This document shows, in pieces, positions 3,894 through 17,697 of a stretch of 64,000 bases of DNA; the stretch's first letter is position 1; every line of letters starts with the position of its first letter. The DNA is taken from NCBI RefSeq assembly GCF_943912325.1, contig NZ_CALTTX010000006.1, positions 11,737 through 75,736 on the forward strand. Direction: 5' to 3'. Below the pieces are notes generated by a model. That model worked only from the letters and a program-made list of their open reading frames with translations, ran no database searches and had not been told where the DNA came from. Position numbers and translations under genes: made by a program. The DNA comes from an uncultured Microbacterium sp. GTDB taxonomy: Bacteria > Actinomycetota > Actinomycetes > Actinomycetales > Microbacteriaceae.

Positions 3894-4676
3894 TCAGCGT
3901 CGCGTGGGGACGGCGCGCCATCCGGCGTCGTCGCGCGTCGCTTCGCCCTCGAGTTCGAGCAGGCCGAGCCGCTGTTCGACCGACGCGCGCGTCATGCCGG
4001 CGCGCCGCGCGATCTCCTCGACCGAGCGTGCCGCACGCGTGCTCAGGGCGTCGTGAACGCGCGAGGCGTCGTCGGTGCGCTCGGCGAGGCCCGGCGACGA
4101 TGCCGTAGCACCGGACGACTTCCGCACCGGTCCCGCGTCTGACGACTCCCCACCCACGAGTTCCGCGACGTCGTCGGGCGAGGTGATGCAGATCGCAGCT
4201 CCCTCGCGCAGCAATCGGTGGCACCCGAGCGATGCCGCCGACGTCACCGGTCCGGGCACCGCTCCCAGCGCCCGTCCGAGCGTCGCGGCGTGCGCCGCGG
4301 TGTTGAGCGACCCGCTGCGCGAGCCCGCCTCGACGACGACCGTCCCCGCGCTACTTGCGGCGATGAGCCGGTTTCGCGCCAAGAATCGCCATTTCGTCGG
4401 TGCCGATCCGGGCGGGACCTCAGAGTAGACCGCGCCGCTCGCGGCGATCCGCTCGATCATCGCCGCGTGTCCCGCGGGGTACGACCGGTCGGCGCCACCG
4501 GCCAAGAAGGCCACGGTCGGAGCGCCCGTGCCGAGGCTCGCGCGGTGTGCAGCTCCATCGATCCCATAAGCCGCACCCGACACCACGGTGAGACCGCGAC
4601 GCCCGGCACCCGCAGCGAGGTCTGCCGCAACATACTCGCCGTACGCGGTCGCCGCGCGCGCTCCCACGATCGCGAC
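3894..4676 (-). pseudogene. dprA: DprA (DNA processing protein A/Smf), C-terminal fragment. The gene is interrupted by an inserted element.
   Basis: The translation ..ALVAIVGARAATAYGEYVAADLAAGAGRRGLTVVSGAAYGIDGAAHRASL.. is the DprA Rossmann-fold core plus its C-terminal winged helix. The N-terminal ~150 aa are absent here and are found 12.5 kb away, at 17260..17697. Confidence 0.8.
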
Positions 4677-4690
4677 AAGCGCGCCCTTTT
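4651..4690. repeat. Left junction (attL-like) of the integrative element. The core tcgcgac lies at 4670-4676.
   Basis: A 7-bp identity with the right junction (17260-17266), with imperfectly matching flanks (cgctcc-cacga vs cgctccgcgaacac). Host dprA sequence resumes immediately to the left. Confidence 0.5.
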
Positions 4691-4850
4691 GCGTCTGATG
4701 CAGGTTCCTTCGGGGTTCCAGGTGTCGTTGATCGTACAGGGAGCCTCGTTGGTGCCATCTCCTGACTGGCGACGACTTGCGCTCGGTCCGTTGTTTCGCG
4801 TTAGATGCGTATTGTCTGCGTTTGATGGGAGTAAACGGGTGGTTTCAGGG

Positions 4851-5954
4851 ATGACGGCGCATGGTGTTGCGGGGCTGTATCTGGCCTCGGGCGTGTCGTT
4901 GTTGCGTGCCGAGGAGTCCGTGTTCGAGGCGATGGTGACGGGTTGGCGGGCACAGCAGATGGGCGGGCGCGGTCTGCGCGAGGACTACGTGACCGGGACG
5001 GTGCGCGCGGTCCGGCAGTTCCATACGCACGCGGGCACGTGGCCGTGGTTGTGGTCGGCGGGCCTGTTCGATGAGTGGATGATGGATCTGGTGTCGGTGC
5101 GGCAGTTGGCGCCGTCGACGATCCGCGGCTATCAGTTGGCGGTGCGGCAGTTCTGCGACTACCTCACCTCGGAGCACTACGGGTGGGTGGCAGAGTGCGA
5201 GCTGCGGTTCGGAACGCACCCGGTGCAGGTCTGCCACGACTGGAACACGACCCGGCATCTGCAGGACTACGAGGGCCGGCCGGGGCGGCGACCGTTGACG
5301 CGAGACGAGTTGCAGGCGCTGTTCGACCGCGCCGACGCGGAGGTCGAGCGGTGCCTGGAGAGTGGCCGCAAGGGCGCGTTGCCAGCGTATCGGGACGCGG
5401 TGCTGCTGCGAGTGGCGTATGCGTGGGGGTTGCGGGCGAACGAGGCGGTTCATCTGGATGTGACCGACTTCTACCGCAACGCGCACGCCCCGGAGTTCGG
5501 CGAGTTCGGGATGCTTCACGTCCGCCACGGAAAGTCGTCGCGGGGCGGCCCACCCAAGCGGCGATCAGTGGTGACGCTGCGGGACTGGGCGGTGGAGGCG
5601 GTGCAGGACTATCTGGAGAACGTCTGGCCGCTGATGCGGCCGGACGGTGAGCGGGCGCTGTGGTTCTCGGAGCGCGGCACCCGGCTGCGGACGAGGGAGC
5701 TGTCGGACCGGTTCGCCGCCTACCGGGACGACCTCGGGTTCGACCGGGTGCTGTCTCCGCACGCGCTGCGGCACAGCTACGTGACGCATCTGATCGAGGA
5801 GGGCGTGGATCCGGTGTTCGTGCAGCGGCAGGTCGGGCATCAGCACCAGTCCACGACGTCGATCTACACCGGGGTCAGCGGCGACTTCGCGAACAAGATG
5901 ATGCGGGATGCGTTGGAGCGGCTGCGGCCGCAGGAGGAAGGAGCGGGCCGATGA
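4851..5954 (+). CDS. Tyrosine-type site-specific integrase of the inserted element
   Basis: The start is MTAHGVAGLYL... It has a core-binding N-terminal domain. The catalytic box HALRHSYVTHLIEEGVDPVFVQRQVGHQHQSTTSIYTGV contains R-H-x-x-R...H...Y. It is the first gene inside the element, next to the left junction. Confidence 0.85.
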   Translation: MTAHGVAGLYLASGVSLLRAEESVFEAMVTGWRAQQMGGRGLREDYVTGTVRAVRQFHTHAGTWPWLWSAGLFDEWMMDLVSVRQLAPSTIRGYQLAVRQFCDYLTSEHYGWVAECELRFGTHPVQVCHDWNTTRHLQDYEGRPGRRPLTRDELQALFDRADAEVERCLESGRKGALPAYRDAVLLRVAYAWGLRANEAVHLDVTDFYRNAHAPEFGEFGMLHVRHGKSSRGGPPKRRSVVTLRDWAVEAVQDYLENVWPLMRPDGERALWFSERGTRLRTRELSDRFAAYRDDLGFDRVLSPHALRHSYVTHLIEEGVDPVFVQRQVGHQHQSTTSIYTGVSGDFANKMMRDALERLRPQEEGAGR

Positions 5955-6301
5955 AGGTGATCGGGTACGAGTGGCGGTTGCGGGAGGTGATGGCGGCGTC
6001 GGGGATCTTCGCGACGTCGAAGCTGGTGCCGTTGTTGCGTGAGCGCGGGATCGAGTTGTCGGCGAGCCAGATCTACCGGTTAGCGACGGAGAAGCCGGAA
6101 CGGCTGAACATGCACGTGCTGGTCGCGCTGATGGACATCTTCGAGTGCAGCGCGGACGACCTGGTCCGCAAGGTCGACCTGGGCGCCTCGGCGGCGGCGA
6201 CCGGCACCGACGGCGAGGACCGGTCCGCGGGCGGCGCGGCGACGTTGCGGGAGAAGGGCCTGCGTCCGCCGCGGGCGCGCGTGATCCCGACGGATGGGTG
6301 A
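5951..6301 (+). CDS. Small helix-turn-helix DNA-binding protein (XRE/excisionase-like accessory protein)
   Basis: Its ATG overlaps the integrase stop (ATGA), indicating coupling. The 116-aa product contains an HTH (LSASQIYRLATEKPERLNMHVLVALMDIFECSADDL). It lies between the two recombinase genes. Confidence 0.65.
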   Translation: MKVIGYEWRLREVMAASGIFATSKLVPLLRERGIELSASQIYRLATEKPERLNMHVLVALMDIFECSADDLVRKVDLGASAAATGTDGEDRSAGGAATLREKGLRPPRARVIPTDG

Positions 6302-8843
6302 CGAGGTCCGCGACGTCCTGGTCGCGGTCATCGCCGAGGTCGAGACGACCGTCACGCGAGATGTCATCCGTCAGATCGTGAACCGCACGATCGTCCGGGA
6401 ACCCGCAGAGCGGCGTCTGCTCGCACAGCTGACCAAGGATCCGGGGATGCTGGTGTCGGGGTCGACGCGGATCCCGCGATTGCTGGATCGCATCCTGCTC
6501 GATCTCGCCGACGCCGGCGGCAGCACGGTTCGCCCGCCGGGCTGCGCACGCTGCGGCCGGGTGGAGTTGCTGGTCTGCCGGGACGGTGAGGATCGGATCT
6601 GCGCGGCCTGCGGGCGGGCGCGCCTGGACGTGCTGATCGACTGCGTCGAATGCGAGCGGAGCGGGCAGCTGCGGCACGCGCAAGTGGGCGACCGGGCCTA
6701 CTGCCGCTCCTGCTGGCGGGCGCTGCAGGACGTCGCCGACGAGCGCCTGGACAGGTTCGTCGCCGAGCGGATTCCCGGCGGGACTCTCTACATGATGCTG
6801 ACCGCGACCGAGGGACTGAAGGCGGATCGCACGTTGCGACTCGCGCTGGAATGCGAGCTGTTCGGCGCCGACTGGATCGCCGACCCGCCGGCATCGTCGG
6901 TCCTGTTTGCCACGTTCTACGAGCGGCTGCGTGAGCTCGGCGCCCAGCTGCCAGCCCTGACCTGCGGGCACTGCGGCCGGGTCCGGAAGCTCCCGGACCG
7001 ACTCGAGGGGCGGATCTGCTGCGGCGCCTGCTACAAAGCCGCGCACCGGGCGGTCTGCGACGGATGCGGCAACACGGCCCATTTGGAGCTACGCCGCCCC
7101 AACGGTGACAGGCTCTGCCAGGCCTGCACGAACCAGCTGCCCGAATCCTCCGCGGAGTGCATCGGCTGCGGGAACCACCGGCTGATCGCGGTGCGCACTT
7201 CGGACGGGCCGATGTGTTCCGGCTGCCGGACCGCGCCCGGCACCGATGTCTGCACGGTGTGCGGCACCTCGGGTCCGTGTCGGTTCCCCGGCACCGAGAA
7301 GGCGATCTGCCTGACCTGCTACGCCGCCGCCCGGGTGGACATCTGTCACCGCTGCGGGCGAGAGCGGGAATGCCGGTTCGCGGGCACACCCAAGGCGATC
7401 TGCACGCCTTGCGCGCTCCCCCGCAAACCGTGCTCGGTCTGCGCCCGGGTGGTGCTCCCGATCCGGCACACCCCGGACGGGGAGCCGCTCTGCTGGAACT
7501 GCGCCCCGCACATCGTGGAGGCATGCATCGGCTGCGGCCGCGAAGCGCGGGTCAACGCACGCACTGACCAGGGGCCGCTCTGCCAGCGTTGCGCCCGGAC
7601 CAGCCCGCTGATGTTCCGCGATTGCCGTCGCTGCGGGACTCACGGACGGCTGCACCACCGCCGCTGGTGTGATCGCTGCTACGCCGACGACAAGATCCGC
7701 GAACTGCTCCCGGACGATGTCGTGGCAGCCGATCCGATGCTCGCGACACTGCGCGAGCGGTTCCTGGCCGCGGACGAGCGACGCACCCTGGACGCCTTCC
7801 GCCGCAACACGACGGTCGCGATCCTGCGGGAGGCCGTCTCCGGCACGGAGCCGCTGAGCCACGCGCTGCTGGACCGGCTGGGTACGCCTGGGTCGACTGC
7901 CCCCGTCCGGGCGCTGCTGGCCGAGTATGGCTTGCTCCCTGCGCGGGACGAGCAGTTGGTCCGGTTCGAGACCTGGTGCCAGGACCGGTCGGCGCAGATC
8001 CTCGACCCGGACCATCGCCGCCTGTTCGACCGATTCGTCCGCTGGCGTCATCTTCGGCAGCTGCGCGAGCAGGACCGCCAGACCGGGCGGCGGCAATCAG
8101 ACGGGCGACGGCAGGAACTGACCCAGGTCCTCGGCCTGCTGGGCTGGCTCACCGCACGCTCGGAATCGCTGACGATGCTCGACCAGGCGCGGCTGGATCT
8201 CTGGCTGCTCGAGGGCCCAAGGCTTCGCCGACGCGTCGCGGCGTTCCTGGAGTGGGCCGCCCGCGACGGCACCTGCCCCCGCCTGCGCGTCCCTTCCCTG
8301 ACCAGCACCCCCAACACGCCGACCGGCGCCAGCGTCGACGAACGCTGGGAACTGCTGGGCAGGGTGCTCAGCGCGCACGACGACGACCCCCGCACCCGAC
8401 TCGCGGGCGCACTGCTGCTGCTGTTCGGGATCCCGGTGGCCCGGCTGCATCTGCTGCGCGTGACCGACATCACCTCCACCGACACAGTCACGATCCGTCT
8501 CGGCGCGGACCCGCTGGAGCTCCCCGACGCGATCGGGCAGCTCGCGATCACCGCCCGTGAGCACCGCGACGCGCCACGCCTGCTCACCGACGCCGGAGAA
8601 TCCGATTGGCTGTTCCCGGGCCAGCATCACGGCGCTCCGCTCTCCCGCGACGCGCTCACCGACCGGCTGGCCAGGTTCGGCATCCGTGCCCGCCATGCCC
8701 GCGCCGGCGCGCTGGCCTCCCTCGCCCAGGAGCTGCCCGCCCCGGTGATCGCACGACTGACCGGCCTTCACGTGACCGCGGCCACCCGCTGGGCCGAAGC
8801 CGTCGTAGCCAGCAACGCCCGCTACAGCGCGCTCACACGCTGA
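6294..8843 (+). CDS. Large (849 aa) zinc-ribbon-repeat protein with a C-terminal tyrosine-recombinase-like domain
   Basis: Residues ~85-470 carry about ten tandem CxxCG...C(x2)C zinc-ribbon repeats (CARCGRV..CAACGRA; CVECERS..CRSCW; CGHCGRV..CGACY; CDGCGNT..CQACT; CIGCGNH..CSGCR; CTVCGTS..CLTCY; CHRCGRE..CTPCA; CSVCARV..CWNCA; CIGCGRE..CQRCA; CRRCGTH..CDRCY). The C-terminal ~330 aa resemble an integrase SAM-like domain plus a catalytic domain (ARLHLLRVTDI ... LFPGQHHGAPLS ... RHARAG ... GLHVTAATRW ... ARYSAL). Confidence 0.7.
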   Translation: MGDEVRDVLVAVIAEVETTVTRDVIRQIVNRTIVREPAERRLLAQLTKDPGMLVSGSTRIPRLLDRILLDLADAGGSTVRPPGCARCGRVELLVCRDGEDRICAACGRARLDVLIDCVECERSGQLRHAQVGDRAYCRSCWRALQDVADERLDRFVAERIPGGTLYMMLTATEGLKADRTLRLALECELFGADWIADPPASSVLFATFYERLRELGAQLPALTCGHCGRVRKLPDRLEGRICCGACYKAAHRAVCDGCGNTAHLELRRPNGDRLCQACTNQLPESSAECIGCGNHRLIAVRTSDGPMCSGCRTAPGTDVCTVCGTSGPCRFPGTEKAICLTCYAAARVDICHRCGRERECRFAGTPKAICTPCALPRKPCSVCARVVLPIRHTPDGEPLCWNCAPHIVEACIGCGREARVNARTDQGPLCQRCARTSPLMFRDCRRCGTHGRLHHRRWCDRCYADDKIRELLPDDVVAADPMLATLRERFLAADERRTLDAFRRNTTVAILREAVSGTEPLSHALLDRLGTPGSTAPVRALLAEYGLLPARDEQLVRFETWCQDRSAQILDPDHRRLFDRFVRWRHLRQLREQDRQTGRRQSDGRRQELTQVLGLLGWLTARSESLTMLDQARLDLWLLEGPRLRRRVAAFLEWAARDGTCPRLRVPSLTSTPNTPTGASVDERWELLGRVLSAHDDDPRTRLAGALLLLFGIPVARLHLLRVTDITSTDTVTIRLGADPLELPDAIGQLAITAREHRDAPRLLTDAGESDWLFPGQHHGAPLSRDALTDRLARFGIRARHARAGALASLAQELPAPVIARLTGLHVTAATRWAEAVVASNARYSALTR

Positions 8844-8869
8844 TCGGCGGCCACGGCAGACTCGACAGC

Positions 8870-9256
8870 ATGAACGATGAGCTTCCCCCGCAGATCCGGA
8901 CGATCGCCGACCGCATCGCGGACGGCTGGGCGGACACCATCGACATCGGCCCGGGATGGTTCGACCTTCTCGCCCGGCTGGACCAACAGCTCGCCGAGAT
9001 CTCGCCCGGCTACGTCATCGAGCAATGCAAGACGAAGTTCGGCACCCTCCGCTACTACGCGCGCCCCGAAGACGCCGACCACACCGACGCGGCCCGGTTC
9101 TCGGACATCATCCGGGATGCCGAGGACGAAAGCGCGACCGTCTGCGAGGACTGCGGCCAGCCCGCCCAGTAGGTCACGAGCCGCGGGTGGGTCTGGACCC
9201 TCTGCACCGCGCACGCACAGCAGCGGACGAACCCCTCCGAGATGTCGGCTGGCTGA
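8870..9256 (+). pseudogene. Hypothetical small protein interrupted by an in-frame TAG at 9170-9172. The translation continues into a second half zinc-knuckle.
   Basis: The ATG at 8870 follows the large recombinase stop. The 100-aa ORF ends ..VCEDCGQPAQ*. The same frame stays open for 28 more codons (VTSRGWVWTLCTAHAQQRTNPSEMSAG*), which would complete a C-x2-C...C-x2-H metal-binding pair. This suggests a nonsense mutation or read-through. Confidence 0.4.
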
Positions 9257-9262
9257 TCCATC

Positions 9263-10012
9263 ATGGATGACATGACCGATCTGGACGCGCTCGTCCCGCC
9301 CCACGAACCCGCCGAGGACACGCTCGCCTTCGCCGGCAAGGCCGCGCTCTCGCTGGTTCCCGTCGTCGGCCCCCTCGCCGCCGAGACGCTCGCGCACGCG
9401 CTGGAGACGAGGCAGGCCGAGCGACAGCACGAGTTCAACGTCGCGATCGCGCAGGCACTCACCGACGCGATCTCGCGGCTGGATGAGGCTGCGACGATCG
9501 AGGACATCGTCGGGTCGGACGAGTTCATCGCCGCGGTCACCCGGGCGCAACGCGCCGCGGCCGAGACCGCCAGCCACCACAAGCGACAGCGTCTGGCCGC
9601 CGCGGTCGCCAACGGCGGGTCCTGGGCGCCGTTCTCGGCCAGTGAGCGTGAGCAGTTCACCCGGCTGGTCGACGAGTTCGACGAGCTGCACGTCTGGCTG
9701 CTGCACTACTTCGCCGACCCCACCGGCTGGCTGCAGTCCCGAGACCTCTACGCCCAGCACGCGAACCTCATGATGGGCGGCATCGACGGGCCGCTGGGCA
9801 CCGCTCTCGGCGTCCCGCAGAATGTCTGGCGCGGACCCGTCGGTCAGGCCGCCTCGGACCTAGACCGGACAGGGCTTGCCTCGATTCCGCTGACCACGAT
9901 GATGACCCCGCAGGGCGTGTTCGCACCGCGCACGTCCGAGAAGGGACGACGATTCCTCGCGTTCATCAATGAACCCGACTCTCTGTCCGCGAATCCGCCG
10001 GCGTCCCTATGA
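9263..10012 (+). CDS. Hypothetical protein (249 aa), no recognisable domain
   Basis: An ORF with good GC3 bias. Its stop overlaps the start of the downstream small ORF (ATGA). It is element cargo of unknown function. Confidence 0.55.
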   Translation: MDDMTDLDALVPPHEPAEDTLAFAGKAALSLVPVVGPLAAETLAHALETRQAERQHEFNVAIAQALTDAISRLDEAATIEDIVGSDEFIAAVTRAQRAAAETASHHKRQRLAAAVANGGSWAPFSASEREQFTRLVDEFDELHVWLLHYFADPTGWLQSRDLYAQHANLMMGGIDGPLGTALGVPQNVWRGPVGQAASDLDRTGLASIPLTTMMTPQGVFAPRTSEKGRRFLAFINEPDSLSANPPASL

Positions 10013-10179
10013 TTCCGATCGACCCCGTCGACATCGACGGCTTGCCACCCGGCCGGAACTGCCCGGCTTGCGGTGAGCCGCTCGAGCCTGGTCACATCGA
10101 CGACTCGCTGCAGTTGGTCTGGCTCTGCCCCTCCCACGGCGTTGTCGACCGCACCATCGACCCGCTCCGAGGCCTGTGA
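10009..10179 (+). CDS. Small zinc-ribbon protein (56 aa)
   Basis: The product is MIPIDPVDIDGLPPGRNCPACGEPLEPGHIDDSLQLVWLCPSHGVVDRTIDPLRGL, with C-x2-C ...(18)... C-x2-H. Its start is coupled to the upstream ORF stop. It is too short for the ORF track. Confidence 0.4.
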   Translation: MIPIDPVDIDGLPPGRNCPACGEPLEPGHIDDSLQLVWLCPSHGVVDRTIDPLRGL

Positions 10180-10198
10180 CAGTCACACGCAAGGATGT

Positions 10199-10870
10199 CT
10201 AGTTGTACTGACCGGGGACATTAGTTGACGCGGGCGGAGGCGGTGGGAGCACTCGCGTCAAGGCTCCCGCATCACCAGCGACCTGCACACCTCGTGCGAT
10301 AGCAGCGGGTAGGGGCATCGCGCCTTGCAGGAGTGCCACCAGGATCGGCCCCGGCCCCGTGACCGTCGCCAGGGGGCTGGTGTCGCGTTGGCAGGGGTTC
10401 ACCGTGATGGTGCCGCTGGCTGCGGTGAGGTCAAAGCCGTCGACGAAGGTGCCGAACCGGATGACGACCGCGGGATCGTCCGGTCGGTGATCTTTGAGGA
10501 GGAATCTAGCTGGTTGGCTGAGCCAATGCATCTGGAAGATCGCGTCGCTCGGTGCATCCGGAACTGTCGGGGCACCCCATTTGAGAAGCTCACGCAGCAC
10601 TCCATCTAGGGCCCGGCCGCGGTCGGTGAGCTGGTATGTCGGTGTGCCCGAGGTGCCCGATGAGGGCTCGCGGACGACGACCCCGTTCGTCTCGAGGTCG
10701 CGCAGGCGCTGGGTGAGCAGGTTCGTCGCAATACTAGGCAGGCCCCGTTGCAATTCACCAAAGCGCAGTTCACCCTCGATCAGGAGCTCCCGCACGATCA
10801 GGAGAGTCCAGCGATCGCCGACGATATCCAGCGCGCGGGCGATTGAACAAAGCTGACCGTAGGACTTCAC
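10199..10870 (-). CDS. HxlR-family winged-helix transcriptional regulator with a C-terminal extension
   Basis: The N-terminus CSIARALDIVGDRWTLLIVRELLIEGELRFGELQRGLPSIATNLLTQRLRDLETNGVV is the HxlR DNA-binding signature. It is divergently oriented to the NTF2/TfoX pair. Confidence 0.8.
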   Translation of the reverse strand: MKSYGQLCSIARALDIVGDRWTLLIVRELLIEGELRFGELQRGLPSIATNLLTQRLRDLETNGVVVREPSSGTSGTPTYQLTDRGRALDGVLRELLKWGAPTVPDAPSDAIFQMHWLSQPARFLLKDHRPDDPAVVIRFGTFVDGFDLTAASGTITVNPCQRDTSPLATVTGPGPILVALLQGAMPLPAAIARGVQVAGDAGALTRVLPPPPPASTNVPGQYN

Positions 10871-10939
10871 GTGACCCTCTTGACTTTATCAAGTATCTGC
10901 TTGAAAGTATCAAGCACTATTCTCACATCAAGGAGAGTC

Positions 10940-11326
10940 ATGCCTGCCACCTTGTCTTCAGACGCGCCACAGGTCCTCAAGGTCTACTACCGGGTCCTCG
11001 AGTCCGGCATCGACGACTACCAGGACGGGGCGACCCTGCGATCCCTGCTGGGCGACCACCTCGACTTCACCGGCTCCCTCGCTGGTCATCTCCCCGATGC
11101 GACCGAGGGCTTCCTGGTCGGCGTAGCCGGCTTCATCGGGACGGTCCAGCAGATCGAGATCATCCACGACGTGCACAGTCCTCACGGGTCGGCCGTGCTC
11201 TACACCGCAACCATGCCCGGCGGCCCGATGACCTTCGCGGAGTTCTTCACGTTCGACGGCGGGCGCATCACGTCATTGAACCTGCACTACAGCGGTCCCG
11301 AGTACATCGAGAAGGGCGGGCGATGA
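10940..11326 (+). CDS. NTF2-like/SnoaL-like small protein
   Basis: The start MPATLSS.. follows an AGGAG RBS. The 128-aa product has a nuclear-transport-factor-2-like composition (..VLKVYYRVLESGIDDY..FDGGRITSLNLHYS). Its stop overlaps the next start. Confidence 0.55.
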   Translation: MPATLSSDAPQVLKVYYRVLESGIDDYQDGATLRSLLGDHLDFTGSLAGHLPDATEGFLVGVAGFIGTVQQIEIIHDVHSPHGSAVLYTATMPGGPMTFAEFFTFDGGRITSLNLHYSGPEYIEKGGR

Positions 11327-11655
11327 CGGACCAGGAGGACCTCATCGAGCGGGTACGTGAAGCGCTAAGTGACCGCAGCCCTCGTGAAGTGTCCATGTTC
11401 GGCGGCGTGTCCTTCATGATCGAGGGACGCATGGTCGTCGCCGCGCGCCGAGAGGGAGAACTCCTGCTGCGCATCGACCCCATGGCCGCGAAGGACCTTC
11501 TCGCCCGCCCCGGTGCCCACCCCGCGCTGATGGGAGCAGACCGCCCCATGGGCGACGGCTGGATCAGCATTGAACAGGCTGCCCTCCAGGGGGCCGGGCT
11601 CGACGCCTGGCTCGAACCCGCACTGTCCTTCCACACGGCGCAAGGCGCCCAATAG
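11323..11655 (+). CDS. TfoX/Sxy N-terminal domain protein
   Basis: The sequence ..REVSMFGGVSFMIEGRMVVAARREGELLLRIDP..PGAHPALMGADRPMGDGWISI matches the TfoX_N fold (MFGG..G.MF....d.L.lK). It is translationally coupled (ATGA) to the NTF2-like gene. Confidence 0.7.
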   Translation: MTDQEDLIERVREALSDRSPREVSMFGGVSFMIEGRMVVAARREGELLLRIDPMAAKDLLARPGAHPALMGADRPMGDGWISIEQAALQGAGLDAWLEPALSFHTAQGAQ

Positions 11656-11676
11656 ACCACTCTCCGTACCCGCATT

Positions 11677-11712
11677 CATCAGTGGCCGGCCGCAAACGTG
11701 GCCGGCCACTGA
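11677..11712 (+). terminator. Perfect GC-rich hairpin (cagtggccggcc / loop gcaaacgt / ggccggccactg) followed by ctgtttc
   Basis: A 12-bp perfect inverted repeat sits directly after the TfoX_N gene stop, followed by a short T-containing tract. It could alternatively belong to the IS481 left end. Confidence 0.45.
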
Positions 11713-12722
11713 TCTGTTTCAGGAGGCACTATGAGCCATCGCAATGCCGCGCTGACCCCACGCCATCGTCTGCGAGTCGCTCGACTCGTCATCGAGGACG
11801 GGTGGCCGATCAGCGAAGTCGCCGCCCGCTTCCAGGTGTCGTGGCCCACCGTGAAGCGGTGGGTCGATCGCTACGTTGCTGGTGAGCCGATGCAGGATCG
11901 GTCGTCGCGCCCGAGATCCTCGCCAAACAAGACGAGCACGAAGATAACGAAGCGGTGCGTGAGTCTACGAATGCGCCTGAGGGAAGGGCCCGTCCAACTC
12001 GCCTCCAGGCTCGGCATCGCCCCGTCCACGGTCCACCGCATCCTCAAAGGTGCCCGCATGAACCGGCTCTCCTACGTCGACCGTGCCACCGGCGAGACGA
12101 TCCGCCGGTACGAACACGACCATCCTGGCTCTCTTGTGCACGTCGACGTGAAGAAGCTCGGGAACATCCCCGACGGCGGTGGCTAGCGCTACGTCGGCCG
12201 GCTCCAAGGAGAACGAAACAGAGCTGCCACTCCTGGGAGGTCGAAGAACAAGTGGCGCAATCCGAAGCTCGGGTACGCGTTCGTGCACACGGTCATTGAC
12301 GATTATTCCCGCATCGCCTACACCGAGGTTCACGACGACGAGACCGCTGCCACTGCCATCGGGGTCCTGCACCGAGCATTCGAGTGGTTCGCCGACCGCG
12401 GCGTCACGATCGAGCGGGTCCTGTCCGACAATGGTGGCGCCTACCGATCCAACCTGTGGCGAGACACGTGCGAGGCGCTATCGATCGCTCCAAAGCGAAC
12501 ACGGCCGTACCGACCGCAGACCAACGGCAAAGTGGAGCGCTTCCACCGGACTATGGCCGACGGGTGGGCGTACGCACGGTGCTACACCAGCGAGCACGAA
12601 CGCCGCGACGCTCTCACCAACTGGCTCCACCACTACAACCAGCACAGGCCCCACACCGCCTGCGACAATCGACCACCCTTCTCACGATTGATCAACGTCT
12701 CCGATCAGTACATCTAGTTGCC
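11700..12722 (+). mobile_element. IS481-family insertion sequence (about 1.0 kb). Its transposase is inactivated.
   Basis: The IS481 transposase N-terminal HTH (11731..12186) and DDE domain (12283..12717) are in the same frame. They are separated only by a TAG at 12184-12186 in the motif GGG*RYVGR (expected GGGWR). The terminal sequences at ~11716-11735 and the reverse complement of ~12706-12722 are similar (aggcactatgag vs aggcaactagatg). Confidence 0.7.
11731..12717 (+). pseudogene. IS481-family DDE transposase with an in-frame amber stop
   Basis: Typical motifs include HVDVKKLGNIPDGGG, then after the TAG KWRNPKLGYAFVHTVIDDYSRIAYTE ... DNGGAYRS ... YRPQTNGKVERFHRT. Confidence 0.8.
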
Positions 12723-15047
12723 TCACGACGCCGAGAATGTCTTGACTAGCGACTCGAGGTCTTCGTGAGGGAGCGCGCGTAGGGCCTGGCCGCTGCCGAG
12801 CTCCCACATCGAGAAGCCGTCCTGGCCGTCGGGCGTGCCGTCGGTCTTCCACGTTCCCTCGGTCACGAACTTCACCTGGACCGTCGTGGAGACATCCTTG
12901 TGCGGCTGGATCGACAGCAGCTTGCGTCGGGCGTCGCCCTCGACGAGATGGTCGCCCTTCGTGTCGACACAGATGACCGTGTCGCCGGACCACACGAGGA
13001 AGTCCGGGAAGAACCAGATCGTCTGCCCGAGCGACACGAGCTGTATCCGGTAGCCGGTCTGCGAGCGGTTCCTCGCCCACGTGAGGCCCGTGTCGTCGAG
13101 AGCGCGGGCGAAGCGCCGCTCGAAGTCGTTGAGGCCGTCGTAGCCCTCGTGAAGCGCGTTCTTGAACGTTTCCATGGATCCGCGGCGTACGAGCGTGCTG
13201 CCGATCTCGTATGGCTTGGGCTTGAGCTGCTTCAGCACCGCGTGGCGGAGGTACTCGTCGACGGCCTCGGCAGCGTTGTCGGCGAGGCTCGCGTACGCCC
13301 GACTGCCGACGCCGACCTTCGCGTCGAACTTCTGGCCATCGGTATCCATGACTGTCAGCGCGAGCCGATAGCGCCGGGAGACCTCGCGCTGGAAAACCCA
13401 TCGAGCGTTGACACGGTTGGACTGCTCAAAGTCCTCCCAGTCGGAGTCGGTCGCGTCGCCCGCGCCGATCGCCTGGACGACGGTGCGTCGCCGACCTTGG
13501 CCGCGGGTGTTCACCGCGTCCTGGGTGTAGTCGAGAACCTTGTCGAGCACCTTCTGCACCGGCTTCACTGTCGCCTCGTTGTCGACACCAGTACGGGGTA
13601 TGTGGCGCGATTCCTTCGGCTCGAGATTCACCGGCGTCTCCGTGCCGGGCGGGGAGGTAAGGATCCGCACCTCAGGGGCATCGCCACCGAGGCCCCGCCG
13701 CACGTCTTCCACGATGTCTTTGAACACGTCGTTGCGGTCGACTCGCACGTAAAAGTGCGCAGTGTTGAGCCTGTCCGCCTCATAGTGCATCGCCCCTGGC
13801 TGGCGTAGCACGCGCCCGACCACCTGAGTGATCTGGACCGTCGACTCCATCGTCTTGTCGACGTACGCGAAATACACGGCCGGGTCGTCCCAGCCTTCCT
13901 GGAGCGTCTGATTGAAGATGATGTGCCGGTAGTCGCCTGCCACGAAGTCGTCGTAGTCGCTCTCGCCGCCGCTGAAGAGCACGAAGTCCGCCGGTAGCGG
14001 GAAGTCCTTGTCGGTCTTGAGATTCGCGTACACAGCGACCTCGTCGGCCGGGATCCCGCACTGCTCGGTGAGATACCGCCAGATCTGGATCGGCGGGGCC
14101 TGTCGCTGGTCGAAGAGTTGCTTCGGGTCGTCCGTGCGGCTCGCGTCGTCCGCGAGGATGTTCGTGTTGCAGACGTAGATCGCCTTCGGCGCAAAGCGGA
14201 GGCCCTCCGCCTGCGCGGCCGCCTCGGCTTCGCGCATGTCGGTGAGCATCTCGGAGACGGTCTCCTCCATCGGCGCGTTGAGCCCGTCGAGCGAAATCAT
14301 CCCTTTGACGAGGCCAGAGGCGACGACCGTCGAGGATTTCACCGACGTGATGAGCGCTTCATCTGTGTAGCCGGCTTGCAACCGCAGAGGCTGGATGACC
14401 TCCGTATCAAATTGCGCCGGGAACCGAAGCGTCGCGCTCGCGAGCAGGAACACACCGGGCTGCTGCTCGAGGAGGAGGTGCGTCTGCTGATCGGAGAGGT
14501 TCTGCGCTTCGTCGTAGACCACGACAAGCGGCCGGCGCTGGCCGTCAGCGGTCTCGCGAACCTTGAGGGCCTCCCACCGTGTGGTCTCGATGCCGTCGAT
14601 GTCGTTCGAGAAGATCTTCAGGTTGCTCTTCTCGCGATCCTTCTGGTTGAACGTGCCGACCGTGGCGAAGTAGAGCAGAGCCTCCTTCGCATCGGCGACG
14701 TCGGCCGGGTCGTACTCACTGAGCAGGCGCACCGTGATGCCCGGGAGGAGGTGACTGTACTTGCCGCCGTTCTCGAGGTTCGCGAAGCTCTGCTGGACGA
14801 CGACCTTGCCCTTGGACAGCCACAGGATTACGGGCGGGATCTCCGACATCGCCACGATCTCGCTGACGGCCTGCGCCAGGATTGCGGTCTTCCCGGATCC
14901 CGTGATCGAGCTCAACGCCTGGTAGAACGGCACCTCGCGCTTGCTGTCGCGGCGTCCCATGACGACAGGATCGGCGTCGTATTCGAAGTACCGGTCGGCC
15001 ATCTGCGAGGCCGCGTCCTGCTGGAACTGGAAGAGCTCGAGCGCCAT
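12723..15047 (-). CDS. res: Type III restriction enzyme Res subunit (SF2 helicase-like ATPase plus endonuclease)
   Basis: A Walker A motif (GSGKTA) and a DEAQN box are present. It has typical Type III Res length and organisation. It lies immediately downstream of mod, with the mod stop and res start 4 bp apart. Confidence 0.85.
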   Translation of the reverse strand: MALELFQFQQDAASQMADRYFEYDADPVVMGRRDSKREVPFYQALSSITGSGKTAILAQAVSEIVAMSEIPPVILWLSKGKVVVQQSFANLENGGKYSHLLPGITVRLLSEYDPADVADAKEALLYFATVGTFNQKDREKSNLKIFSNDIDGIETTRWEALKVRETADGQRRPLVVVYDEAQNLSDQQTHLLLEQQPGVFLLASATLRFPAQFDTEVIQPLRLQAGYTDEALITSVKSSTVVASGLVKGMISLDGLNAPMEETVSEMLTDMREAEAAAQAEGLRFAPKAIYVCNTNILADDASRTDDPKQLFDQRQAPPIQIWRYLTEQCGIPADEVAVYANLKTDKDFPLPADFVLFSGGESDYDDFVAGDYRHIIFNQTLQEGWDDPAVYFAYVDKTMESTVQITQVVGRVLRQPGAMHYEADRLNTAHFYVRVDRNDVFKDIVEDVRRGLGGDAPEVRILTSPPGTETPVNLEPKESRHIPRTGVDNEATVKPVQKVLDKVLDYTQDAVNTRGQGRRRTVVQAIGAGDATDSDWEDFEQSNRVNARWVFQREVSRRYRLALTVMDTDGQKFDAKVGVGSRAYASLADNAAEAVDEYLRHAVLKQLKPKPYEIGSTLVRRGSMETFKNALHEGYDGLNDFERRFARALDDTGLTWARNRSQTGYRIQLVSLGQTIWFFPDFLVWSGDTVICVDTKGDHLVEGDARRKLLSIQPHKDVSTTVQVKFVTEGTWKTDGTPDGQDGFSMWELGSGQALRALPHEDLESLVKTFSAS

Positions 15048-15049
15048 GA

Positions 15050-16993
15050 TCAGCCCTCCTCGGTGAACGATTCGGTGCGGACATCCAGCCCGAAGTCGGA
15101 CAGGATCCGGTCGGGGATCTGGTACCACGTCACGTCATCGGTGACGAGAAGATTGCGACGGCTGTACACGTGGTAGTGGTCCGCCAACCCGGCCGCATCG
15201 GCTTCCTCGGTGATCGTCTCGTACACATTCTCGGTGAGGTCGGGGCTGGAGTTCGGTCCCGACCAGACGAGGAAGATGCCCTCGTTCGCAGCGTTCTTCG
15301 CGACCAAGTACGCGTACGGCTCACTGTGACGCTCGACCGGAATGAGCACAGCCGCGCGACGGCTGCCGGTGCTCGAGTGCGAGGCGATGACAGTGTCGAC
15401 CATCTCGTCGCGCTCCATGAGCAGCAACGTCTTGGCGTCGACCTTCTTCTCAAGCAGCTTGAAAGTGAAGCCGCCTCCAAGCGGCTTTCCCTGCCCGTTC
15501 GCCCAATCACCGTTGACCACGCGAGCAAGACGATCGGCTGTGAGCGTCTTGGCGTAGGAGTCACCCCGTTCTGGGCGTCCCTGCTCGATGAGAATGAACC
15601 GCCGGTCGCTACCCGACATCTCGTTGAGCGCGAGGACAGCGTGGCCCGTCGTCCCCGACCCACCGAACGGGTCGAGGACAGCGCCACCATCCGGGGCCCA
15701 GAGCTGGATGATCTTCATCATGAGCTTGAGCGGCTTGACTGTCGTGAACCCGTGCCCCTTGCCGACGATCGCAGTGAGCTCGGCCGCGCCGTCGCTACTC
15801 CTGCCAGACTCCTCGAAGTCCCAGGACGTCGAGCCGAGTTCGTCGGGGAGATCCATCTCCTCATCGGCCCAATAGGTGATCGGAACCTTCCCCTTCCTGA
15901 TCCTCTCAAGGTATGTCTTCGTCCGAGGACGCCCCTGCCCGTCGCGGCCAAACCAGATGAAGGGCCACGCCGGCTCCGCCAACCGCGCCTCGGCCCGCTT
16001 GGCGACCTCGGGGCCGTAGCCGTCGACAAGCAGAAGTGCCTTGGCTTTGCCGTCGCCGATGGCCTGCTCGTGGTACAGGGAGCCCCACTGCTCGAGCCAC
16101 GCCTGGATGTTCCGCTTTGGGTGCCGCCACGCGCCCTCACCAGCGGGGTAATGCAGCTCACCTGTGAAAGGCGACTGGATGGCGTAGTCGCCGCTGTGGG
16201 CCCACGTTCGCGCCGTGAGGTTGCCCTCGCGCCACAATCCGATGGGGTCGGAGTCCGGGTTGCCGTAGCGTCGGTTGTCGGCGTCAGTACGGTCCATCGA
16301 TGCAGTCTTGGCGCGGGCGAGGTCGCGTGCGTAGACGAGCACATACTCCGTCGTAGCCGTCACGCCGCCCTTGTCCGAGCGTGGGGCGGCCGTCTTCTGC
16401 CAGTTGATGATTGCGAGCCGGTTCTCCTCGCCGAACAACTCGTCGAGCATCTGGCCGAGATGGAACAGCTCGCGGCTGTCGATGCAGATCGCGAGCACAC
16501 CAGACGGCTTCAGCATCGCTCGCATCATCTGCAGGCGCGGATACATGAACTTCATCCACTTGGTGTGCTTCGCGGGGTCGTCGCTGCCCACGAACTCGCC
16601 CATGTCGGGGTCGTTGGGGTCTGTGTCCCACTTGTCGTTGTAGCGGAAGTCGTCGCCCGTGTTGTACGGCGGATCGGTGAGGATCAGGTCGACGTGGCCC
16701 CGCTCGCGGTACAGGGAGGCCAGCGCCTGCAGGTTGTCGCCCTCAATCAGGAGGTTCCGCGCGCGGCCGTGCTCGTCGCCCGCGCTGTACTTCTGGATCG
16801 TCCGCTGGTTGCGCGGGCGCACTCGGCGGCCGAGCTGCCGGGCAAGGACCTTGCCGGGGAACGAGAGGTTCACGCCAGCTCCGGTCTTCTCGCGGATCAT
16901 CTCGATCAGTTGCTCGACGGGCAGATCTTCCAGAGCAAGCGAATCGTCCACGATGTGTCCTTTGGTTGGGGGCGGCGCAGGTCGTTCTGGCAT
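15050..16993 (-). CDS. mod: Type III restriction-modification methyltransferase Mod (N6-adenine)
   Basis: The DPPY catalytic motif (LILTDPPYNTGDDF) and the AdoMet-binding FGGSGTT motif (VLDPFGGSGTTGHAV) are present. It is the first gene of the mod-res operon. Confidence 0.85.
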   Translation of the reverse strand: MPERPAPPPTKGHIVDDSLALEDLPVEQLIEMIREKTGAGVNLSFPGKVLARQLGRRVRPRNQRTIQKYSAGDEHGRARNLLIEGDNLQALASLYRERGHVDLILTDPPYNTGDDFRYNDKWDTDPNDPDMGEFVGSDDPAKHTKWMKFMYPRLQMMRAMLKPSGVLAICIDSRELFHLGQMLDELFGEENRLAIINWQKTAAPRSDKGGVTATTEYVLVYARDLARAKTASMDRTDADNRRYGNPDSDPIGLWREGNLTARTWAHSGDYAIQSPFTGELHYPAGEGAWRHPKRNIQAWLEQWGSLYHEQAIGDGKAKALLLVDGYGPEVAKRAEARLAEPAWPFIWFGRDGQGRPRTKTYLERIRKGKVPITYWADEEMDLPDELGSTSWDFEESGRSSDGAAELTAIVGKGHGFTTVKPLKLMMKIIQLWAPDGGAVLDPFGGSGTTGHAVLALNEMSGSDRRFILIEQGRPERGDSYAKTLTADRLARVVNGDWANGQGKPLGGGFTFKLLEKKVDAKTLLLMERDEMVDTVIASHSSTGSRRAAVLIPVERHSEPYAYLVAKNAANEGIFLVWSGPNSSPDLTENVYETITEEADAAGLADHYHVYSRRNLLVTDDVTWYQIPDRILSDFGLDVRTESFTEEG

Positions 16994-17240
16994 GTTCCGC
17001 TCATGCCAACCACACGTCTACATCCTACGAGCGGGGGCAGACGTTGGTCGGATCCGAAGGGCGCCGGCAAGGCAGAACACACCTGCCAGCACGCAGCGAA
17101 GTCGGACTACTTCAAGCCCTCACGCGCCGAACCGATGACTGCGCAACCATACTCAACAGGCGCGGGCACGCCAGTGATCGAGATCAGCACCCGCATCGAC
17201 ACTCCCGCCGGCTAAAGCGCGAGGTTCAACTCCGCGACAT

Positions 17241-17275
17241 GCCAATCGCTCCGCGAACACTCGCGACCCCGCCCG
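17241..17275. repeat. Right junction (attR-like) of the integrative element. The core tcgcgac lies at 17260-17266.
   Basis: The same 7-bp core is found at 4670-4676, with imperfectly repeated flanks. The host dprA N-terminal coding sequence begins immediately to the right. Confidence 0.5.
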
Positions 17276-17697
17276 TCAGCACCGAGGGCCGAGTCAGCCG
17301 AAGCGCCCCGCCGCCACAGGCAGAACGGCGCATGGTTCTCGAGATCGTCGAGCCCATCGGGCCAGGCCACATCCCCGGGGATGATGACACGGAGTCCCGC
17401 CCGGTCCGTCAGTTCGAGCGCTTCGTTGAGCGCGCGCCGCGTCGCGCGCGGGCGCCACCGCCGAAGCCCTTCGCCGACCTCCCTGTGGTTCATGAGAGCC
17501 GGCGCCGGCTCTCGCGCGGTGATCGCCTCGAGCGCGGCAACCGCTCCGAGCTCGGCCACGAGCGCTCCCGCGACCCCGTCGCCGGGTTCGGTCACGATCG
17601 CCCAGGCGATACGCGCACAGCGCTCGGCGTCCACATGATCGGCCCGCACGGCACCCAGGAGCATCGGCTCGCACGGCGGAACCTCGCGGGCGCTCAC
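17260..17697 (-). pseudogene. dprA: DprA N-terminal fragment (SAM-like N-domain and start of Rossmann domain). It is separated from its C-terminal part by the 12.6-kb insertion, and also carries an internal frameshift.
   Basis: The translation ..VIIPGDVAWPDGLDDLENHAPFCLWRRG, then (in the +1 frame) ALRLTRPSVLTGGVA, joins perfectly to AIVGARAATAYGE at 4676 when the intervening element is removed. Its start overlaps the comM stop. Confidence 0.8.

Follow-up and report, generated by a model that had tools for sequence, protein, structure and literature searches.

The 64,000-nucleotide stretch of DNA analysed here (the window; positions 11,737 to 75,736 of contig NZ_CALTTX010000006.1, from an uncultured Microbacterium sp.) has a high-GC, actinobacterial base composition and carries three co-oriented open reading frames (ORFs) at positions 4851-8843. 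They code, in this order, for an integrase (Int), a small helix-turn-helix (HTH) protein and a large protein of 849 residues. They lie within a mobile, site-specific and precisely bounded element that has inserted into dprA, and they are its only invariant genes (Table 1). We propose, with a probability of roughly 0.6, that this trio constitutes the recombination module of a site-specific transposon of neither conjugative nor phage type, and that Int assembles with the large protein into a heteromeric recombinase.

Table 1. Coordinates of the element, its genes and protein domains, and umuD-type target loci (window positions unless a locus is named; aa, amino acids; AF2, AlphaFold2)
Feature	Position	Strand	Basis or remarks
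Whole mobile element	4677..17247	.	12,571 bp; inside dprA; ends exact to +/-1 nt
dprA, C-terminal 260 codons (VAIVGAR...)	3894..4676	-	Pfam DNA_processg_A profile positions 51-210 and DprA_WH
Left, int-proximal end	4677..4850	+	terminus AAGCGCGCCCTTTTGCGTCTGATGCAGG
int	4851-5954	+	367 aa; Xer-like canonical tyrosine integrase
HTH gene	5951-6301	+	116 aa; Cro/C1-type HTH protein
Large gene	6294-8843	+	849 aa; zinc-ribbon array, then tyrosine-recombinase-fold domain
N-terminal helical module	aa 1-83	+	AF2 model; precedes ribbons 1-2
Zinc ribbons 1-2	6543..6713, aa 84-140	+	CxxC pairing and AF2 model
Helical insert	6714..6962, aa 141-223	+	AF2 model; weak repeat of the N-terminal helical module
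Zinc ribbons 3-10	6963..7679, aa 224-462	+	CxxC pairing and AF2 model
Helical linker and core-binding-like domain	7680..8264, aa 463-657	+	AF2 model
Catalytic-domain fold	8334..8843, aa 681-849	+	variable R717, WLFPG 772-776, then R800, R803, W833, Y844
Type III restriction-modification pair	12723..16993	-	Res 12723-15128, Mod 15050-16993
Right-end conserved 38-mer	17210..17247	+	GGCTAAAGCGCGAGGTTCAACTCCGCGACATGCCAATC
dprA, N-terminal 150 codons (...RECSRS)	17248..17697	-	join test with C-terminal fragment
umuD-type locus, L013	7960-8367 and 15795-16145		
umuD-type locus, L014	7933-8379		
umuD-type locus, L015	1365-1799		

The gene order yraN-comM-dprA-xerC is conserved in actinobacteria. In the window, xerC and a dprA fragment devoid of its first ~150 codons are found to the left of the trio, and a 150-codon ORF, comM and yraN are found ~12.5 kb to the right. 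In silico joining of the two dprA pieces at ...RECSRS|VAIVGAR... yielded a protein of 410 residues, with 99% identity over 100% of its length to an intact 410-residue protein (P0180) whose contigs display the order yraN-comM-intact dprA-xerC. The empty site in locus L024 corresponds to window positions 4617-4676 joined to 17248-17307, with one single-nucleotide polymorphism and no base gained or lost. The boundary ambiguity is thus limited to one nucleotide (C), and the comparison with L024 revealed no target-site duplication. The element is absent from the same dprA site in conspecific genomes, and occupied and empty sites therefore occur within a single species. The dprA attB around the insertion point reads CCCACGATCGCGAC|GCTCCGCG. 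The preliminary description had placed the trio at the left end of an element, which agrees with the boundary mapped at 4677. The C-terminal dprA fragment keeps nearly the whole Rossmann and winged-helix part, and no in-frame start is found upstream of a GTG at 4667. DprA loads RecA during natural transformation.

The left end of the element harbours three direct copies of GCGTYWGATG, at positions 4691, 4798 and 4818, in blocks that are conserved across divergent elements. No other copy is present in the 64-kb window, for a motif derived post hoc from these three repeats. They are candidate protein-binding sites. The right end resembles the window's own flank in a CTCCGCGA(C/A)A stretch, a host-specific similarity that is absent in other hosts. 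We rejected a classical attP/attB identity core.

Searches in one genome per species yielded 14 related loci. The integrase-HTH-large protein order is kept in 20 of the 20 contexts examined, including those of relatives at 27-30% identity; in two relatives at 28-29% identity, it reads Phage_integrase-HTH_26-large protein. The preliminary description would have been refuted by stand-alone homologues not linked to mobile-element boundaries. The homologues are not stand-alone, and the trio of the window abuts a mapped boundary. In seven loci, the window included, the same dprA codon is hit in the same orientation, and the flanking genes of the hosts differ. The dprA-inserted element of Microbacterium ginsengisoli DSM 18659 (L001) is 99.77% identical to that of the window over 5.5 kb, in contrast with the flanking XerC, DprA and ComM proteins, which are only 54-60% identical. 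A near-identical element between diverged flanks indicates recent horizontal transfer between species. The window's host is not M. ginsengisoli, and its DprA is 53-59% identical to the DprA proteins of named Microbacterium species. It is probably one of the Microbacteriaceae that are represented in metagenomes only (L024-L026).

The ends of the element are conserved as well. Eight related elements have the right-end 38-mer, with 0-9 substitutions, as their far end, and their flanks diverge directly after it. Together with a left-end 28-mer, it delimits elements of 7.4-14.1 kb with differing cargo, and the end motifs recur in L001, L002, L005, L007, L008 and L009. Among these, L005 is a clean insertion into a yhcG gene for a PDDEXK nuclease, with Pfam profile positions contiguous across the split. 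Its target site, CCCACGAACGCGAA, matches the int-proximal half-site of dprA, CCCACGATCGCGAC, at 12 of 14 positions. The opposite side of the target is not conserved. L010 was rejected as a new target, because its left flank differs through an adjacent ISL3-like transposase. L007, a metagenomic contig of 7,409 bp, is just 3 nt longer than the single element it comprises, as might be expected of a free form or of an assembly that broke off at a polymorphic insertion. A circular form is unproven for this contig, which has no terminal overlap.

In more distant relatives from Arthrobacter and Paeniglutamicibacter, the trio is found directly downstream of umuD (Peptidase_S24), and an IMS/umuC fragment follows the element in L013. 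These loci suggest a second DNA-repair target of the family. Between the dprA and umuD subfamilies, the Int proteins are 63-72% identical and the large proteins 34-46%. The much faster divergence of the large protein between target subfamilies fits a role in specificity. Just upstream of int, L013 harbours at 8400-8500 a perfect 16-bp inverted repeat, TCTCCCGTCTAATGCA ... TGCATTAGACGGGAGA, with equivalents in L014 and L011, and the HTH protein may use this repeat as its operator. At the corresponding place, the window has two direct GCGTTWGATG copies. Lastly, a ~4-kb element composed of the trio only splits a Tn3-family transposase gene in L021 (4411-8385), one of the two relatives at 28-29% identity. 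Its left end contains TTGCATCCGATGCAAC, which resembles the left terminus of the window's element.

The preliminary description reported the three genes at the positions found here, and their ORF coordinates and overlaps agree: int and the HTH gene overlap by ATGA, and the last 8 nt of the HTH gene also belong to the large gene. It had called the first gene product a canonical tyrosine integrase of ~367 residues. Int belongs to Pfam Phage_integrase (PF00589; 1.3e-23, 84 bits for a cut-off of 27.1) and has a complete R..HxxR..H..Y set (R195, H304-x-x-R307, H330 and Y339). It also matches a PHROG integrase (1.9e-30), with partial XerC/XerD matches in NCBIfam. The 116-residue protein, likewise assigned as an HTH protein at the outset, has a single Pfam match, HTH_26 (2.8e-10).

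The large protein has no match in Pfam, NCBIfam, PHROGs or PADLOC. It contains 20 CxxC motifs that form 10 paired Cys4 units (84/103, 117/137, 224/243, 255/275, 289/308, 320/339, 351/370, 380/400, 411/430 and 444/459), and 45 of its 47 cysteines are located upstream of residue 463. Judging from the sequence, this clustering of CxxC motifs is far from chance, and relatives of at least 600 residues retain 10-22 of them. The CxxC-x(10-20)-CxxC spacing and the beta-hairpins modelled by AlphaFold2 (full-length predicted local distance difference test, pLDDT, of 83.8) are compatible with zinc ribbons. Foldseek returned weak LIM-like matches for ribbons 3-10. Pfam DZR and DZR_2 were not detected in the window's protein, and weak matches were found in 4 of 19 relatives (1e-4 to 8e-4). 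About ten tandem ribbons had been described as filling almost all of the first ~470 residues. The count holds, with exactly ten Cys4 units, but the array is interrupted, as residues 1-83 and 141-223 are helical. The two helical modules, each taken with the ribbons that follow it, are weak in-register repeats of one another (BLASTP E = 0.027, mainly over the ribbon part).

The C-terminal domain of the large protein displays the core-binding and catalytic-domain folds of the tyrosine recombinase superfamily, as anticipated in the preliminary description, which would have been refuted by the lack of such a fold. We determined residue conservation on 180 sequences aligned to the domain profile, mostly representatives of 50%-identity clusters. 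R803, at the Arg-II position, is kept in 176 of 178 relatives, W833, at the His/Trp position, in 177 of 178, and Y844 in 176 of 176; the WLFPG segment is nearly invariant. Thus, of the catalytic residues initially put forward, Y844 and R803 stand. The His of 'GLHV', in contrast, is not the residue at the His/Trp position, which is W833, and R800 stands in place of the putative His of the HxxR motif.

Based on these features, we propose that the element would alternate between a free form and the ~14-bp target in dprA. The 367-residue Int would supply canonical tyrosine-recombinase chemistry, and the synaptic complex would be heteromeric, with the large protein as the obligate partner of Int, by analogy with TnpB and TnpA in Tn554. 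The recombinase-fold domain of the large protein would fill two of the four positions of the tetramer, and recognition of DNA or of the target, or scaffolding, would fall to its helical modules and ten zinc ribbons. As Tyr844, Arg803 and Trp833 are invariant, we lean towards the large protein still making one pair of strand cleavages, via Y844, with Arg-I perhaps contributed in trans or by a residue at a shifted position. For the HTH protein, we envisage a role in regulation or directionality, possibly exerted at the repeats beside the start of int. The junction of the circular form would read ...CATGCCAATC|AAGCGCGCCC....

Several observations weigh against this proposal. At the gathering score, the 849-residue protein does not match PF00589, for which four to five relatives give weak matches (best E 2.5e-4). 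The candidate Arg-I, R717, is an Arg in only 69% of the relatives, and in a hidden Markov model (HMM) alignment to XerA the Arg-I column corresponds to Pro714. The segment with the beta-hairpin Lys is deleted in most relatives, and the window's protein has none. R800 is an Arg in 71% of the relatives and variable in the others. The second 'recombinase' is thus, as judged from these alignments, devoid of the full catalytic set, with a non-canonical active site. The missing Arg-I and Lys speak against autonomous catalysis, whereas the invariant nucleophile Tyr844 favours retained chemistry. In addition, zinc binding, DNA binding by the ribbons and the partnership among the three proteins are predicted features. 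The element ends were searched for direct and inverted repeats, both within each end and between the two, with no meaningful result, and neither a terminal inverted repeat nor a shared core was found. No free circular junction was recovered, including from the L007 contig.

Alternatively, Int might perform all four strand exchanges. The large protein would then be derived from a recombinase but catalytically dead, and would serve as an accessory with a target-selecting, architectural or repressor role. Analogous precedents are Tfp and GinC of the SE and GInt elements, and MrpR and SroF, the recombinase-fold regulators of SPbeta-like phages. We consider this alternative possible, though clearly less probable than a heteromeric recombinase. 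The conservation of Tyr844, Arg803 and Trp833 at 99-100% in ~180 sequences is hard to explain without retained chemistry or active-site geometry, and a canonical GKGVKE hairpin is still present in the relatives P0023 and P0025. It could also be argued from the lack of a family annotation for the large protein that Int alone moves the element, with the HTH and large proteins being linked cargo of regulatory or defence function. This is improbable, since the trio order and overlap are invariant in the 20 contexts, in contrast with the other cargo, and since the genes overlap and a ~4-kb element in a Tn3 transposase gene consists of the trio only. That the module resolves plasmid or chromosome multimers or mediates inversion, rather than transposition, would agree with the Xer-like nature of Int and the abundance of homologues on plasmids, but it is most improbable given the occupied and empty dprA sites in one species, the exact ends in different genes and hosts, and the presence of up to six copies on some replicons.

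A more speculative reading may be entertained, which we regard as rather unlikely as a whole. The ribbon array would be a modular, evolvable DNA-reading head that sets the insertion site (dprA, the umuD-umuC junction and others) for a recombinase pair tolerant of crossover heterology. These proteins would then be a natural family of retargetable, site-specific integrases, and dprA targeting would be adaptive by disabling transformation-mediated curing.

We compared the element with known multi-recombinase systems. Tn554, whose family occurs in Staphylococcus and Enterococcus, codes for an ordinary and a long recombinase-type protein and a small third protein of ~120 residues (TnpA, TnpB and TnpC). 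It inserts into one gene in an orientation- and site-specific manner, with no duplication, terminal inverted repeats or conjugation genes (PMC10214605, PMC3414803). By these published properties, the present element resembles Tn554, with an ordinary recombinase, a long recombinase-type protein and a small protein, and with site- and orientation-specific insertion into a housekeeping gene of DNA metabolism in the absence of duplication, terminal inverted repeats and conjugation genes. Tn554-like behaviour, including insertion into housekeeping genes without target duplication, had been suggested initially and is observed here. Nevertheless, the gene order is int-small-large and not A-B-C, the small protein is of the Cro/C1-type HTH family, and the long protein combines a ten-unit zinc-ribbon array with an incomplete catalytic set. 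Furthermore, we found no 6-bp footprint or coupling sequence of the Tn554 type. Within a subtype the termini do not vary, they bear no relation to donor flanks, and the empty site plus the element account for every base.

Pairs that include an abnormally long recombinase (Famint36/41) were reported from actinobacteria by Van Houdt et al. (2012), who termed them 'Tn554-related'. Like our trio, these pairs, exemplified by that of Arthrobacter FB24 plasmid 1, are found on actinobacterial plasmids and chromosomes, with a short recombinase gene followed by that of a protein of ~800 residues, in which a long N-terminal extension with no annotation precedes a C-terminal recombinase domain. However, the long FB24 protein (803 residues) has a clear PF00589 match (7.9e-15), no HTH gene is found between the two genes, and BLASTP detected no similarity between this protein and the 849-residue protein (best E 0.06). 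Based on the BLASTP and Pfam results, with FB24 as the one exemplar compared, we rejected identity with the 2012 class of 'Tn554-related long TBSSR' (tyrosine-based site-specific recombinases).

The SE (strand-biased circularizing integrative elements; IntA-Tfp-IntB-Srap; gamma-mobile-trio GmtX/Y/Z) and GInt elements also have overlapping genes that form an operon at their attL end. These code for a middle protein in addition to an ordinary and a large recombinase, and both kinds of elements have target specificity and no mobilization genes. SEs have been reported only in Gammaproteobacteria, and GInts in Gamma- and Betaproteobacteria. Their middle protein is the large recombinase-like Tfp or GinC, unlike the 116-residue HTH protein of our trio. 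With the NCBIfam gamma-mobile-trio models, the score of Int was 26.7 bits for GmtY, where the cut-off is 340, and 15.2 for GmtZ, where it is 600; no match was obtained with the large protein. By these comparisons, the trio belongs to neither the SE nor the GInt elements. Nor is it a RIT (recombinase-in-trio) element, a group to which it had been likened earlier. RITs similarly comprise three adjacent, overlapping genes including those of tyrosine recombinases, but all three code for recombinases, whereas HTH_26 is the only domain coded by our middle gene, and RITs have no zinc ribbons. The preliminary description knew of no zinc-ribbon array of this size fused to a tyrosine recombinase; in agreement, our literature searches found no description of this architecture or of dprA-targeting elements. 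The element is a widespread and apparently undescribed variant of the multi-recombinase site-specific transposons.

The family of the 849-residue protein is common rather than rare in Actinomycetota, according to sequence searches. An exhaustive profile search collected 1,711 clusters at 50% identity with E <= 1e-30, and 4,598 with E <= 1e-10; these thousands of clusters led us to reject the notion of a rare family. Using tblastn, 260 plasmid records were retrieved, with Streptomyces (116), Rhodococcus (59) and Arthrobacter (19) in the lead. Identities are 28-42% among the matches listed, the match extends over at least 80% of the protein in 49 records, and a replicon may harbour up to six copies. 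In RefSeq, the plasmid homologues are labelled 'hypothetical protein' or 'site-specific integrase'. Searches of IMG/VR and INPHARED found the large protein on none of their phage or viral contigs, and on these grounds we rejected a phage origin.

The cargo of the window's element includes a Type III restriction-modification pair, identified with PADLOC (MTase_III, 6.7e-71; REase_III, 4e-9) and Pfam (N6_N4_Mtase, ResIII). The pair looks complete, with a Mod protein of 647 residues and a Res protein of 801 residues. Related elements harbour a P-type metal ATPase instead (L005, 13432-15405). On the plus strand at 11731-12691, two consecutive ORFs with transposase-type HTH domains (HTH_23, HTH_Tnp_ISL3, LZ_Tnp_IS481) look like a broken or frameshifted insertion sequence, and they fall where the homology to the L001 element breaks off (10205-12713). 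At 10199-11326, an HxlR-family regulator gene on the minus strand is divergent from a 151-codon ORF with no family match, in a segment of ~0.63 GC content as compared with ~0.70 in the recombination module. Immediately 3' of the large gene (8861-10012) are ORFs for 103 and 249 residues, also with no family matches. These are 79-100% conserved in L001-L004 and absent from the L005-L010 subtype, and hence do not belong to the invariant core.

The targets that a 2025 review lists, in the part available to us, include comM, ssbB, comK, comGA and others, and dprA insertion is not among them. With the element described here, dprA would join the genes of competence and recombination that mobile elements are known to target. 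Its family is abundant across Actinomycetota, including on Streptomyces, Rhodococcus and Mycobacterium plasmids, and carries varied cargo such as restriction-modification systems or metal-transporting ATPases. With its large subunit having no Pfam match, and few relatives having sub-threshold ones, it would likely be missed by recombinase surveys based on Pfam thresholds. To our knowledge, the mechanisms of Tn554, SE, GInt and RIT elements are unsettled, and neither the need for two recombinases nor the choice of targets without a shared core has been explained. With its exact ends, its short and defined target, a minimal element composed of the trio only and a culturable host, M. ginsengisoli DSM 18659, the present family makes the question of the two recombinases directly testable.

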